From Terriglobia bacterium (GTDB lineage: Bacteria; Acidobacteriota; Terriglobia; JAJPHL01; JAPKYU01), in NCBI GenBank assembly GCA_965206645.1, contig CBDBKE010000004.1, positions 198,738 to 262,737 of the forward strand: a DNA stretch of 64,000 nucleotides. The letters are read 5' to 3'. The number at the start of each line of letters is the position of its first letter. Positions within the stretch are counted from its first letter, which is position 1. The notes below the pieces were generated by a model, which worked only from the letters and a program-made list of their open reading frames with translations, was not told where the DNA came from and ran no database searches. Below, in pieces: positions 30,859 through 60,670 of the stretch. A program made the position numbers and the translations under genes.

Positions 30859-31160
30859 CTCCTACAGGCCCAGAATTCCCTGTTGTCCATGGTAGAAGAG
30901 CCCGGCCAGCGCGCCCGTCATGAGTGTGGCCAGAGTAGAACCCGCCAGCGCCCGAAACGCCAGAGCAGCGAGATCGTTCCTGCGAGAAGGAACCAGAGCG
31001 GCAATGCCTCCGACAAAGATCCCCATGGAAGCGACGTGGGCAAAACCGCACAGCGCGTACGAGAGGACTAGCAGCGCTCTGGGAGAGAGGGCCTTTGCGG
31101 CGCCCATTTCTCCCAACTGCTGGTAGGCTACTGACCTGCCGGCTTTCTTCGGACCACCGA

Positions 31161-32084
31161 TTACTGGAGAACAGCGCCAGTCGGCATGGTTAAGTCGCTC
31201 TCGTGTTCTTCTTGGTCAGCGTGAGCCGGCATCGCCGGCGAGCGCCCACCGTCATCCGAGCCAGCACGGAGCTGCGCTTTGAACTCGGCTGGCGTCAGAT
31301 AGCCAAGGCTCGAGTGCGGTCGCACGTCGTTGTAGTGCCGTCGCCATTGCTCGATCCCCACCTTCGCGTCCACGCGGTTCCGAAACCACTGCAGGCTCAG
31401 ATACTCGTCGCGGAACTTCCCGTTGAACGATTCGTCGGTCGCATTCTGCCACGGCTTGCCCGGCTCGATGAGCGCGGTTTCGATCTGCGCCTGGAGCAGC
31501 CACCGGAAAATCGCACCCGCGACAAACTCGGGGCCGTTGTCGGACCGGAGGTAACGTGGGGCTCCGTGGACGCTCACGAGCTGCGTGAGCACCTCGATAA
31601 CGCGCCCGGACCGAATGCCGCCGGCCACGTCGATCGCGAGTGACTCGCGGGTCCATTCGTCGACGACGGTGAGGCACTTGAGCGTCTGCCCATTCGCGCA
31701 GGTGTCGAACACGAAGTCGTACGCCCAGACGTGATTGACCGCAGTGGCGGGCACCGGGCGGGGCCGGCTCAGGGCGACCCGGCGCCGCGGCCGCCGCCGA
31801 GGCACCTGCAACCCCGCCTGGCGCCAGAGGCGATGGGTCCGGTCCGTGCTCATCGTGTGCCCTTCGCGTTTTAGGAAAATCCGAATCCGGCGATAGCCGT
31901 ACCGCGGATACTGCGCCGCCAGACGACGCATCGCGGCCAGCGCCGGGGCATCCCGGTCGACCAGCCGCGACTGGTAGCCCAGCGTGGACCGTGCGACGGA
32001 GAGCAAGGCGCACGCGCGGCGACCCGACAGACCGCGTGCACGTGCATACGCGACCTGCGGCCGGCGCACGCGTGCGCCTACCAT
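31161..32084 (-). CDS. IS3 transposase OrfB (DDE integrase core)
   Basis: YGYRRI, WAYDF, SDNGPEF and [10 protein letters not shown] motifs. Confidence 0.93.
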
Positions 32085-32090
32085 TTTTTT
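32063..32090 (-). promoter_or_regulatory. -1 programmed frameshift signal of the IS3 element
   Basis: A-AAA-AAA slippery heptamer (32084-32090) followed by the palindrome GGCGCACGCGTGCGCC (32063-32078). Confidence 0.8.
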
Positions 32091-32341
32091 CGGGTGATCT
32101 CCTTGAGCACGTCGATCTCCAGATCTCGATCGGCCACCATCTTTTTCAGCCGGCCGTTCTCCTGCTCGAGCTGCCGCAGCCGCTTCACATCGGCGGGCTC
32201 CAACGTGCCGAAGTGTTTCCGCCAGGCGTAGAGCGTCTGGGCGCTGACGCCGTTCTTTTTGGCCACCTCCGGAACGGGCCGCTGATCGGCCTCGCGGAGG
32301 ATCGTCACCATCTGCTCTTCGGTAAACCGGGTCTTCTTCAT
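32078..32341 (-). CDS. IS3 transposase OrfA (HTH)
   Basis: MKKTRFTEEQMVTILREAD..VSAQTLYAWRK..LEQENGRLKK. Confidence 0.93.
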   Translation of the reverse strand: MKKTRFTEEQMVTILREADQRPVPEVAKKNGVSAQTLYAWRKHFGTLEPADVKRLRQLEQENGRLKKMVADRDLEIDVLKEITRKKW

Positions 32342-33474
32342 GGCTCCCTCGTTTCTCCGAGGGCGCCATTCTCTCAGGCTTCAGCTGGTCCGGAAATCGC
32401 CAGGCAGGTCACTACCACCTCGGTGAGGACGATGCGCTTGCCGAGAAGCTGGGCTGCCCCAGGGAGGTCGCTGCTTTCCAAACCCAGCAGCCAGGCGAGT
32501 GGGGTGAACAGCCAGCCAAGGATTCGCTCGAGATTCAGCGGCTCGCCAAACCAAACGCTCAAAGGTGCTGTTGCATTTTCCAACGCCAGGTCTACGATCC
32601 CGACCATGCCCAAGACGGCAATGAGCAGGGTGGAGATGCCTGCCGCCAGCTTTAGACCGTCCCAGGAACCGGCGCTCAGCGCGGCCATGGTGTTGCCGTG
32701 GAGCTGGGACTCTGCGATTGGGGGCAGAGCGCTTGAGGTCTCCGGTTTGCCGGTCTCGGGAAGGATCAGTTTAGAGACCAGCGCTGCTGCTGGTATGGAG
32801 AGAAACGAGGCTGAGATGAGATGCCCGGCGATCTGAGGAAACGTGTCCTTGAGGAAGAAGACGTAAAGAGCTAGCGTCGTGGAGGCAACCGTAGACATGG
32901 CGCAGGTCAGCAGCGTTAGCAGTTCTGAGCGGGTCATCCCTTCCAGATAGGGCCGGACCGTAGTGGCTGATTCGACCCCCACGAAGATATTCGAAGCCCC
33001 GGCCACTGCCTCGGCCCCCGACAGCTGCAGTGTCTTCTTGAACAATCGCGCGGATAGGCGGATCAGCGGCTGAATCAGTCCGAGGTGGTAGCAGGCGGCC
33101 ATCAGAGCGGCGAAGAAAATCACGGCTGGCAACACCTGCGCCGCCAGGACAAACCCCACGGAAGGCTCTCCGGCCGAGGTGGTCTCACCCGGATTGAGCA
33201 CCAGCGGTCCGAAAAGAAACTCAGCTCCTACACGACTCGCTCCCAATAAGGCGACCACCAGGTCATTTACCCCGAGTAGGAGATGACGGGTCTGCGGTAC
33301 CAGGAAGACCACTGCCCCCAAAGCCAGCATCAACAGACCTGAGCCGAAAATCGTCCGCCAAGGCACAGGTCTCCGGAAGCCCCCCACTGCCCAACCCAGA
33401 CTGCCAAACCCAAGCAGTCCCAAGAAAGAGATCAAGTTCAGCACACTCATGACCCTATTAACGCATACTGTCTC

Positions 33475-37691: not shown

Positions 37692-38037
37692 TCAGCTTAC
37701 GACCTCGTTTACTTGTCTCTCTGGCTTGATGTCGGTGAAGTTAGCTATGTCGGCTCTCAGCTCCTCGCCGTCCCAGCCCCTTTTTCAGGTGTGTCTCGGT
37801 GTGTGCTCCCAGCCCCTTTTTCAAATCGTCAATGGAATTGAATAAAAGCATCGCCATGACCACGAAGGGCGCGGGTGCGTCAGGAGTCGATCCAGAAACG
37901 CCTTTGTCAGCGTCGATCCGGACTAATCCAAATGGCTTGAGTTTCTCTCTGACCAGCTTGAGGTGTGTCTCGGTGTAGTACTTGAGGTCGAATTTCGCAC
38001 CGGGCTTGTTAGGGTAAAGGACAACCAACCTAACCAT
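37692..38037 (-). pseudogene. EthD family reductase frameshifted by a 31-nt insertion (37771-37801)
   Basis: VLYP..FDLKYYTETHL. Removing the insert restores GAHGEELRADIANFTDIKPERQVNEVVS* (104 aa). Confidence 0.85.
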
Positions 38038-39133: not shown

Positions 39134-39745
39134 CAGTGCTTTCCTGACCTAGACGCGGCCTCTCCTATGGCCTCGTTGCAGGGCAGACCCTTAGGCTGTT
39201 TGCCTGCATATGAGAGAACAGGGCGCAATGCATCTTCGCTCAGCGACTCATCTCCGGCCTCTCCGTAGACGGCGGGTCCACTGCATAATCTTCACTTCCT
39301 CGGATGCGCTATTCAAGTCTCTTTAAACCGAAAGGCTCCAGGCAGACGTTCCAAGGGAACCTCGTTGATTATAAGCTCAGCGCCTAACAGCGCGCCGGGG
39401 GGTGAGCCTAGGGTGCCGGACTCTTGGACTACCGCTTTCTCTCTAAGCGCGCCTACAATGCCGATTGTCAGTCCAGGAAGGTCCGTCGACGCAGGCCAGT
39501 CATCTTAAGTGCGATTCGCGACACGCAGGAGCTCTGCAAGAAAGACAGCGCGTTCGCTATATTCTCTTTCTTTAATCTTTAGCCTTAGGCCTGGGCAGGG
39601 GGAGCTTTTCGTGCAGCCGCAAGGCTGGGAGATGTAGCGAGCGCACGATAGTTAGGCCGCTGCTCGAAGCCTGAGACTCGTATTGCCTTTGGCGGAAAGT
39701 GCCCGCGGAAGAATCTTCTGCGAGAAAGACAGGGAAGCCAGGAGT

Positions 39746-41107
39746 ATGGCAACACCGTGTCCGCAGCAGTTCGTCAAGTCCCCACCCACCGGATGGGTGG
39801 ATTCCTTGCGCTCAATCGGGCCTGGGCGTGATTATCGTCGCAACAATCGTCGGCAGCGGCGAACTCGTAACGGATCAACCAAAGGACGACAAATCCTACC
39901 TTGGCGCCGAGCAGGGTGGTTCGTTGTTTCGTGCCTGGTCAAGGTGATCATTCAAGAACAGTGGGCCTACTACGTGATCACCTCAGGAGGCACCCTGCTA
40001 GACGCCACTTCCTTTCTTCTCGGCCCACGCGTGCGAGGACTCTCGTTGTGGACCTGGCTACTGTTCCTTTATTTCATCCTCAACATTTTGCCAGCAGCCG
40101 GTGTGGTTGGGATGACGGCGACCACGGCGGCACTGGCGACCGGCGTGGGAAGTGTCTCCTTTTGGGCCCTGGCGCTTACCGCTCTCACCATCGTGTTCCT
40201 GTGGTTCGGCACCTACGCCCGGATCGAAAAACTGTTTATTTTGATGGTCGCGCTGTTTTCGTTTTCCATGTGCATCGCTCTCGCGTTGACGCAGAGCACG
40301 CAGCTAGCCATTCGTTGGTCGGAACTGATTTCCGGGCTACGGTTTGAACTGCCGCCAGCAGGCATGTACATCGCGCTCTCCGCATTCGGCATTACCGGCA
40401 TCGCCACGCCGGAAATTATTTTTTACACCTATTGGTGTCTGGAAAAAGGCTACGGCCGTTACATCGGGCCGCACGAGGAAACTCCGGAGTGGCGGGAGCG
40501 CGCGCGGGGCTGGATTGCCGTCATGCGGAGAGACATCATGCTCTCTGCGGCCATTTACACTCTGATCACGATTGTGTTTTATCTACTGGGGGCGGCCATT
40601 TTGCACCGCACCCGACCCGATGCAGCGAACCTGGAAGGCCTGGACGTTGCCTTGGCGCTCTCGAAGAGTTTCACGGACTCCTTTGGGCAGTGGAGCTTCG
40701 TGATCTTCATGACTGGCGCTTTTTTGGTCCTGTACTCCACCTTTGTCGGCGCCTGCGCGTCCTGGGCGCGCTTCAGTGCCGACTTCTCCAAGAAGCTCGG
40801 CCTGATCTCGGCGACTGATCCTGCTCAGTGGGACCGATGGTGCAAGTGGCTCTCAATCTCCCTGGCCGCAGTTTTCCTGCTGGCATTCTTGCTCATCAGG
40901 ACGCCGGTGGCTCTGATCCTGTTTGGCGGAGTCATGCACGCTGTGTTTCTTCCACTGCTGGGACTTTCAGTGATCTATCTGTTCCACCATCGCGGCCGGC
41001 AAGGTCTGACTCCCGGGTCTCACGTGCGAGTCATCTCGTGGGTCTGCAGCGTCATCATACTCGCGGTTGTGATTTGCACTCTGTATCTGCAGACGGGTGG
41101 CGCCTGA
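39746..41107 (+). pseudogene. Nramp/MntH-like divalent metal transporter with a damaged 5' region
   Basis: SIGPG, then VIIVATIVGSGELV in a shifted frame, TTLLGAKVGFVVLWLI on the reverse strand (39873-39920), then VVSCLVKV and 9-10 further TM helices. The main frame stays open. Confidence 0.75.
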
Positions 41108-59324: not shown

Positions 59325-60670
59325 TCCTCCCCAAGGCCCGGCCTCCTCAAGGACCGGCTGCGGAAGAAGAAGTAAGCGGGGACGCCCAGGCCTATCATCC
59401 CTAGGCCCACCAGTGAGCGCCACCACTCCTGCTGGCGCAGGATCATCACCACCAGGGCTGCGCTGACAACCACAAACAGCGCCGGGATCACCGGGTAACC
59501 CCAAGCGCGGTAGGGCCGCGGCCACTCCGGATGCTTGCGCCGCAATACGAAGAGTGAGCCGACGCCCAGTCCGTAGAAGCACCAATTGGCAAAAATCGCG
59601 TAGGTGAACAACTGTTGGAAGGTTCCAGTCAAGCTGATCAGGGCTCCTATAATGGTTTGGACGACCACGGCGACGTGAGGACTGTAGAAGCGCGGGTGCA
59701 CGGCTGCCAACTGGCCGAACATCAACCCATCGCGCGCCATAGCGTAAGGCACGCGCGCGCCCGAGAGGATCGAGCCGTTGAGGGCGCCAAAGATGGAAAT
59801 CAAGGCCGCCAGGGCAACGGCGTCGCCACCCCACCCGCCGAACAAGCGCCGCGCCACATCGCCGGCCACCCGATCCGAGGCGGCCACCTCGGCCGCGGGT
59901 AGGACATAGAAGTAGGCCAGGTTGGTCAGAAGATAGAGCAGTCCTACGGCCACGGTTCCCAGCAGCAGCGAGCGGGGAATGTTCTTTTGTGGGTCGGCCA
60001 CTTCGCCCCCGGCCAGGTTCAGGTCATTCCACCCCTGGTAGGCCCACAGCGCGGCCACCAGAGCCAACACGAAACCGCTGACGGGCGCCTGAACGGGTAT
60101 CGAGGTGCGTAGGTGACTCCATTGGGCGTCTCCCCACTCGGCTCCGAAGACCAATGCGGCCAGCACCAGGGCCAGCAGCAAGGCTACCTTCAGGACGGTA
60201 AAGAAGGTTTGTACAGCGCCACCGGCGCGGACGCCGAAGTAGTTTACGGCCCCGAGCACGGCAAGTACTACAACTGCAACTACTTTTAAATGAAGGGAAG
60301 GGAAGAGAATTGTCAAGTACAAGGCGAATGCTGTCGCCAGCGTCGCCATCGCCGCCGTTGTCATCACCAGAAACTTCGTCCAGCCGTAGAGGAAGCCCCA
60401 CATCCGGCCGTAGGCCTCCCGCAGATAGACGTAGTCGCCGCCCGAGTGCGGCAGCATCGCCCCCAGCTCGGCGTAGGCCAGCGCCCCGCTGAGCGAGAGC
60501 AGGCCGACAAAGATCCACACCAGGAAGACCGCTTCCGGCGTTCCCACGCCGCGCATCATCGAGCTGGAAACCAGGAAGATACCGCTGCCAACGATGTTGC
60601 CTACGACCAACGAAGCGGCACCCCAAACACCCAGGCCGCGTACCAGCTCGCTATTGGACTTAGGCAGCAT
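59321..60670 (-). CDS. APC family amino acid permease
   Basis: VVGNIVGSGIF, YAELGAM..SGGDYVYL and ALWAYQGW motifs. Confidence 0.92.
   Translation of the reverse strand: MLPKSNSELVRGLGVWGAASLVVGNIVGSGIFLVSSSMMRGVGTPEAVFLVWIFVGLLSLSGALAYAELGAMLPHSGGDYVYLREAYGRMWGFLYGWTKFLVMTTAAMATLATAFALYLTILFPSLHLKVVAVVVLAVLGAVNYFGVRAGGAVQTFFTVLKVALLLALVLAALVFGAEWGDAQWSHLRTSIPVQAPVSGFVLALVAALWAYQGWNDLNLAGGEVADPQKNIPRSLLLGTVAVGLLYLLTNLAYFYVLPAAEVAASDRVAGDVARRLFGGWGGDAVALAALISIFGALNGSILSGARVPYAMARDGLMFGQLAAVHPRFYSPHVAVVVQTIIGALISLTGTFQQLFTYAIFANWCFYGLGVGSLFVLRRKHPEWPRPYRAWGYPVIPALFVVVSAALVVMILRQQEWWRSLVGLGMIGLGVPAYFFFRSRSLRRPGLGEE

Follow-up and report, generated by a model that had tools for sequence, protein, structure and literature searches.

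This locus raises the question of how a gene can keep an uninterrupted reading frame of 453 codons although the first transmembrane segment (TM1) of the transporter that it should encode has been lost. The gene lies in a 64,000-nucleotide stretch (hereafter the window) of contig 4 of a 4.4-Mb, four-contig genome (G000) from an uncultured soil acidobacterium (Terriglobia), and its product would belong to the Nramp-like transporters. We have considerable confidence in an explanation in which a 48-nt inversion within the gene is a real, one-off mutation, of short-range templated or rejoined origin, which has been inherited in a sub-lineage and has left an open-frame pseudogene.

The transporter gene and its rearranged allele

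The exact 453-aa product of the window is present in the protein collection (P0121). In a profile search it matched PF01566 with 38.1 bits, starting at residue 60 and profile position 20, whereas the intact conspecific protein P0138 matched with 54.8 bits from residue 42 and profile position 3. Both scores are above the gathering cut-off of 29.8 bits, the match of the window allele being 17 bits lower and short of profile positions 3-19. The intact orthologue shares with the Nramp family both this above-threshold match and the TM1-TM2 signature GPG...G.G....T....GAK.GF..LW, and differs from it in having GSGE for DPGN. When it was aligned across TM1-TM2 to 7QIA, the Nramp-related Mg transporter EleNRMT, and to 10ky, a structure of another divalent-metal transporter, GSGE fell opposite DAGG and DPGN, respectively, and on the EleNRMT alignment the segment missing from the window allele covers TM1 and the start of TM2. 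The DPGN motif is absent from TM1 of the intact relatives, which have GSGE at the aligned position, and in the window TM1 is not in frame.

The GSGE motif, residues 36-39 of P0138, occurs clade-wide in place of the canonical DPGN of Nramp or DAGG of NRMT proteins, and as far as sequence can tell the substrate of the intact GSGE protein is probably not the usual Mn/Fe. Two paralogues of the Nramp-like gene in the same genome, 33-36% identical to it, have open frames without stops. A search around the gene for riboswitch, promoter and terminator features gave nothing significant, and a terminator-like hairpin at 39896-39919 was no better than expected by chance.

The features of the allele, in window coordinates, are as follows.

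39746-41107, plus strand: Nramp-like transporter ORF (P0121), 453 aa, frame open, putative pseudogene
39824-39826, plus strand: GGG where every un-inverted relative has GG, the additional G shifting the frame by +1 and being common to L015 and L016
39827-39872, plus strand: 46 nt that ancestrally encode VIIV(G>A)TIVGSGELVT of TM1, in forward orientation but in the wrong frame
39841, plus strand: window-private G->C, changing an ancestral GGA Gly codon to GCA (site pattern CGGGGGG)
39869-39872, plus strand: AACG, left arm of the sole flanking inverted repeat, with the right arm, CGTT, at 39922-39925
39873-39920, minus strand: inverted 48-nt segment, the reverse complement of which (ACCACC...TTGATC) encodes TTLLGAKVGFVVLWLI and matches L017-L020 at 48/48 and G001 and G003 at 47/48 positions
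39921-39922, plus strand: TC, a second copy of the final two bases of the ancestral 48-nt segment, adding +2 to the frame

For the allele model L017 was taken as the ancestral state. In a linear alignment the 48-nt segment resembles about 30 clustered substitutions. Its reverse complement matches at 48/48 positions, which rules out chance. The string composed of left flank, reverse complement of the 48 nt, its last 2 nt, and right flank is found verbatim in both the window and L015, so that the inversion is bracketed by a 2-nt inverted duplication, with GA opening the inverted block and TC directly after it. The extra G lengthens a GG run that lies 47 nt upstream of the inversion, where the window reads GGGCCTGGGCGTG and all six un-inverted sequences have GGGCCTGGCGTG, and the stretch from 39827 to 39872 is that of L017 apart from the private change at 39841. 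The +1 of the G and the +2 of the TC sum to +3 nt, and the reading frame therefore stays open, with 453 codons in place of the 452 of the relatives. Read over 39740-39990, the ORF frame gives MATP...WVDSLRSIGPG, the next frame gives VIIVATIVGSGELVT, and the ORF frame again gives VVSCLVKVIIQEQW. Inverted repeats of at least 6 nt were found at the junctions of neither allele, and the ancestral sequence (L017) has no significant fold (z = 0.57).

These results bear out most of an earlier, sequence-only reading of the window, which had proposed the 48-nt micro-inversion, the extra G and the restoration of the frame at the inversion junction. Its reconstructed protein, when aligned to homologues, is identical to the intact conspecific proteins but for the private G->C change. 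Its description of the junctions needs amending in part: recombinase sites are indeed lacking, but the microhomology that it gave as AAC/GTT only is actually the 4-nt pair AACG/CGTT.

The un-inverted relatives come from within and from outside the species. G001 and G003, both deposited as "MAG: Terriglobia bacterium", carry same-genus orthologues with 90-92% amino-acid identity and represent sister species; in both (L002 and L003, respectively) the 48 nt are in forward orientation and the GG allele is present, as is the case in the four conspecific contigs L017, L018, L019 and L020. The 452-aa proteins P0138, P0142 and P0124 have a normal TM1-TM2 and are near-identical to the window product outside the garbled region. 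The window allele itself occurs twice more. L015 (ERZ25068966, a 536-kb contig at 15x) and L016 (ERZ25071132, 37 kb at 3x), which come from separate ENA analyses, both have the GGG run, the inverted 48 nt and all junctions as in the window, and a second 453-aa protein with the garbled peptide, P0122, differs from that of the window at 8 other residues. An intermediate allele, with the inversion alone or the extra G alone, was found in none of the 27 cluster members. A pattern neutral to the orientation of the segment had 0 matches in JGI metagenome contigs, and in species-representative genomes it matched only the two sister MAGs, both un-inverted.

Seven conspecific sequences were aligned over 6.9 kb for SNP grouping. 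Between the window and L015/L016 this alignment contains 32-33 substitutions and not a single indel, and the inverted clade (window, L015 and L016) is backed by the rearrangement and 2 SNPs, with zero conflicting site patterns; private SNPs number 14 in the window and 18 in L015/L016. Longer comparisons gave 30 mismatches and 0 gaps over 17.8 kb downstream in L027, on the contig of L015; in L028, on the contig of L018, the sole gaps over 20.5 kb are one of 1 nt and an 18-nt indel bounded by repeats. Given that these long alignments are nearly free of gaps, differences of 1-2 nt cannot be put down to assembly noise, and given that the allele was found three times on two strain backgrounds, we conclude that the mutation is genuine, arose once and has been inherited.

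The protein product and the open frame

The 31 ancestral codons affected (VIIVGTIVGSGELVTTTLLGAKVGFVVLWLI) have a mean hydropathy of +1.84 and a net charge of 0, and the 32 codons that replace them (RDYRRNNRRQRRTRNGSTKGRQILPWRRAGWF) have a mean hydropathy of -2.17 and a charge of +11, in agreement with the earlier proposal that about 31 transmembrane codons had given way to a basic, hydrophilic peptide. The codons exchanged comprise TM1, including the GSGE motif, and the start of TM2. It is established for Nramp that a LeuT-fold transporter without TM1 is unable to build its substrate site. Since TM1 and its substrate-site motif are gone, we read the gene as a pseudogene despite its open frame; the 453-aa product, to judge from its residues, should be unable to work as a LeuT-fold transporter, and the gene would be an open-frame pseudogene.

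A dN/dS of 0.94 was obtained between the two inverted strains, on the small counts of 8 non-synonymous and 3 synonymous changes, and between species the value for the Nramp-like gene is 0.22-0.27. The intact conspecific alleles also have elevated values, with many non-synonymous changes. We considered dN/dS as proof of pseudogene status and rejected it, because the counts are too small and because the intact alleles are elevated too.

While the mutation would be just as real, it might be that the open frame was selected, with either the +1 G or the +2 TC being compensatory because translation through the gene mattered. The reason could be the avoidance of Rho-dependent polarity on the downstream TPR gene, or activity left in the remaining 10 TM helices. 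Consistent with such a proposal, the two changes total exactly +3, the 32 out-of-frame or inverted codons include no stop codon, the ORF is uninterrupted in both diverged inverted strains, and no terminator-like site was found between the Nramp-like gene and the TPR gene 267 nt downstream. On the other hand, chance would restore the frame about one time in three, and the event has been followed by about 11 substitutions, too few for even one new stop codon to be expected in any case. The ratio in the inverted clade, small as its counts are, speaks against a constrained product, the gene has been destroyed outright in related lineages, and an allele representing the step before compensation is missing from the cluster. 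Selection for the open frame thus appears improbable to us, and the frame is most likely a by-product, whether of chance or of the same patch of error-prone synthesis.

Origin of the inversion and decay of the neighbouring genes

In the ancestor of the sub-lineage to which the window genome and the L015/L016 strain belong, 48 nt were exchanged for their own reverse complement, and the last 2 nt (TC) were copied again at the right junction; a +1 G was gained in the GG run, perhaps together with the inversion and perhaps on its own. Such a product could come from a switch of template between strands, over a short range and in the course of replication or repair, in which the switch back falls 2 nt before the point of exit. 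[quoted passage not shown] In the present allele the inserted bases reproduce the adjacent template in exact reverse complement, and four switch points suffice to generate it: if S is the 48-nt segment, point 1 is 39872, point 2 the last base of S, point 3 its first base, and point 4 lies 2 nt before its end.

The locus resembles documented template-switch mutations (PMC5453318) in that a local, exact reverse complement arose in one event and in that neighbouring genes contain templated insertions. It differs from them in the 0-1 nt of microhomology at the switch points and in the additional +1 G 47 nt away. It departs also from the quasi-palindrome model of Ripley, given that no pre-existing quasi-palindrome or inverted repeat primes the switch at this locus, and clean microhomology for either switch was not seen at the junctions.

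It is also conceivable that two breaks released a 48-bp fragment, which Ku and LigD rejoined in reverse while a 2-nt overhang was filled in. The genome encodes both Ku (PF02735, 158.9 bits) and a LigD polymerase domain (TIGR02778, 244.8 bits; cut-off 214.7), and the GA...TC duplication is what would be expected from fill-in of a 2-nt 5' overhang at a GATC end followed by re-ligation in reverse. LigD is an error-prone repair polymerase, and nearby single-base additions would fit its action. End joining would, however, need two breaks 48 bp apart and the recapture of a very short fragment. We regard this origin as possible but rather unlikely, and favour short-range template switching by the four-point model, which on balance probably produced the inversion, because the neighbouring events in the window lineage are templated copies.

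Three further candidates were tried and rejected. Recombination between AACG and CGTT predicts a product 2 nt shorter than that observed. Models with 1+1-nt staggered cuts do not reproduce the junctions, and only duplication of TC at the right break does so. Gene conversion from a paralogue is not a credible source of the segment, which matches the gene's own ancestral sequence at 48/48 positions while the paralogues are 33-36% identical.

The Nramp-like gene is the last of a block of three genes, the others being ethD and a methyltransferase gene, and two further rearrangements of the window lineage lie in these, within 2.2 kb.

37771-37801, no strand assigned: two-part templated insertion of 31 nt in ethD, window-private, absent from L015-L019
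38888-38914, no strand assigned: templated insertion of 27 nt in the methyltransferase gene (Methyltransf_11), window-private, absent from L015 and L017-L019

The sources of the two pieces of the ethD insertion lie 36 nt and about 190 nt downstream. That in the methyltransferase gene is in frame and has its source 74 nt away, so that the protein has 208 aa in the window vs 199 aa in L017-L019. Window-private 1-nt deletions are present at about 37525 and 38468. A 1-nt deletion is also found in the methyltransferase gene of L015, at about 3868 (window 38585). Altogether, three templated micro-rearrangements and four 1-2-nt indels of the window lineage fall within 37.5-39.9 kb, and the following 17.8 kb are without any.

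Other lineages have damaged the block in other ways. Independently of the window lineage, the Nramp-like gene has been cut by a 5' deletion in L023, where residues 186-452 are left; it carries a +2 (TG) frameshift near codon 189 in L024, the resulting two-ORF split recurring on three contigs; and in L025 it is disrupted by two IS elements. In L019 (2963-4372) and L020 (42-1451) an IS5-like transposase gene (DUF772/DDE_Tnp_1) is inserted upstream of the intact Nramp-like gene, about 630 bp from its start, and the allele of this IS5-bearing strain has 5 private non-synonymous changes. An IS3-type element (HTH_Tnp_1 + rve) is found in or next to the methyltransferase gene in L015 (2258-3538) and also in L016. 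A 99.8% identical copy of the latter is located at 31131-32411 on the minus strand of the window, and the presence of such similar copies at different places indicates that the element is active within the species.

The simplest reading of this pattern is that relaxed selection on the three-gene block exposes a spontaneous indel spectrum that is rich in short-range templated events. From the alleles compared, the Nramp-like gene appears to be dispensable and to be decaying in several lineages. We also considered that the inversion is no isolated accident and that a local, recurrent template-switching repair, MMBIR-like or LigD-dependent, acts on this 2.4-kb stretch, which we think doubtful. 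If it were so, a single tract of error-prone synthesis could have given rise to both the inversion and the frame-restoring +1 G, and if mutation and not only relaxed selection were at work, long-read MAGs of Terriglobia, being clean of indels, would offer a natural read-out of bacterial template-switch mutagenesis.

Reversibility and authenticity of the inversion

Intragenic invertons, which depend on inverted repeats of the recombinase type (11 nt in the thiC example), are documented to recode or truncate genes (10.1101/2023.03.11.532203), and the segment described here might be one of them, a programmed, reversible element through which the transporter would alternate between off and on, or be recoded, by phase variation. 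Both orientations occur within what appears to be one species, and the inverted state keeps the ORF open. Like the invertons of Chanin et al. (10.1101/2023.03.11.532203), this is a short inversion, wholly intragenic, that recodes the protein in an open frame; unlike them, it is inexact, could not revert to wild type, and is fixed and diverging in one lineage.

Several observations argue against such a switch. The flanking inverted repeat is 4 nt here vs the 11 nt of thiC, and no recombinase-type pair is present. The inversion is not conservative, and re-inversion of the segment would fail to give the ancestral protein, since the 2-nt duplication and the linked +1 G would remain. Orientation follows the SNP phylogeny, with 14-18 private SNPs gained since the event, and among the assemblies and samples compared none contained both forms, each having one orientation. 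Given the want of usable inverted repeats and the inexactness of the inversion, programmed phase variation is unlikely, and as an account of the whole locus we find an inverton very improbable. The sequence-only reading had tentatively raised phase variation, and this suggestion finds no support here: the inversion is inexact, its repeat is 4 nt long, and the sub-lineage in which it is fixed has diverged since the event.

An artefact of assembly or consensus calling in long-read metagenomes, to which one might attribute the three extra bases, all extending existing runs as long-read errors typically do (GG to GGG, G to GG, T to TT), and the two private insertions nearby in the window lineage that relatives do not support, is scarcely credible when three assemblies, drawn from different samples, have the identical allele and do so on two SNP backgrounds, un-inverted strains assembled under the same naming scheme have the normal sequence, and independent assemblies agree over 17.8 kb with zero indels.

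A genuine mutation, inherited in one sub-lineage, offers a clean and independently replicated example of a natural, in-place micro-inversion in a bacterial gene, with the ancestral and derived alleles in one species. It is a mutation of a known kind, and represents no new mechanism, regulatory switch or system. For annotation it is a caution, in that the gene passes as intact, with its open ORF, deposited protein and Pfam score above threshold, though TM1 is lost, and the detection of pseudogenes by stops or frameshifts alone misses such cases. The allele adds weight to the view that this Nramp-related paralogue can be dispensed with and is undergoing repeated loss in this Terriglobia genus, and it is a data point on mutational spectra in Acidobacteriota.

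Two minor observations concern the strain comparisons. Many of the private non-synonymous differences among strains, in the gene at 39746-41107 and the conspecific loci, are T->G changes in different lineages, with ATT->AGT, ATC->AGC, GTG->GGG and TTT->TTG among the examples in the Nramp-like loci; this could be a mutational bias or a systematic bias in base calling. The 18-nt indel of the longer alignments, at 59863-59880, is in frame within an amino-acid permease gene and is bounded by CGGCCACC repeats; the window and L027 have the 18 nt, and L028 lacks them (449 vs 443 aa).
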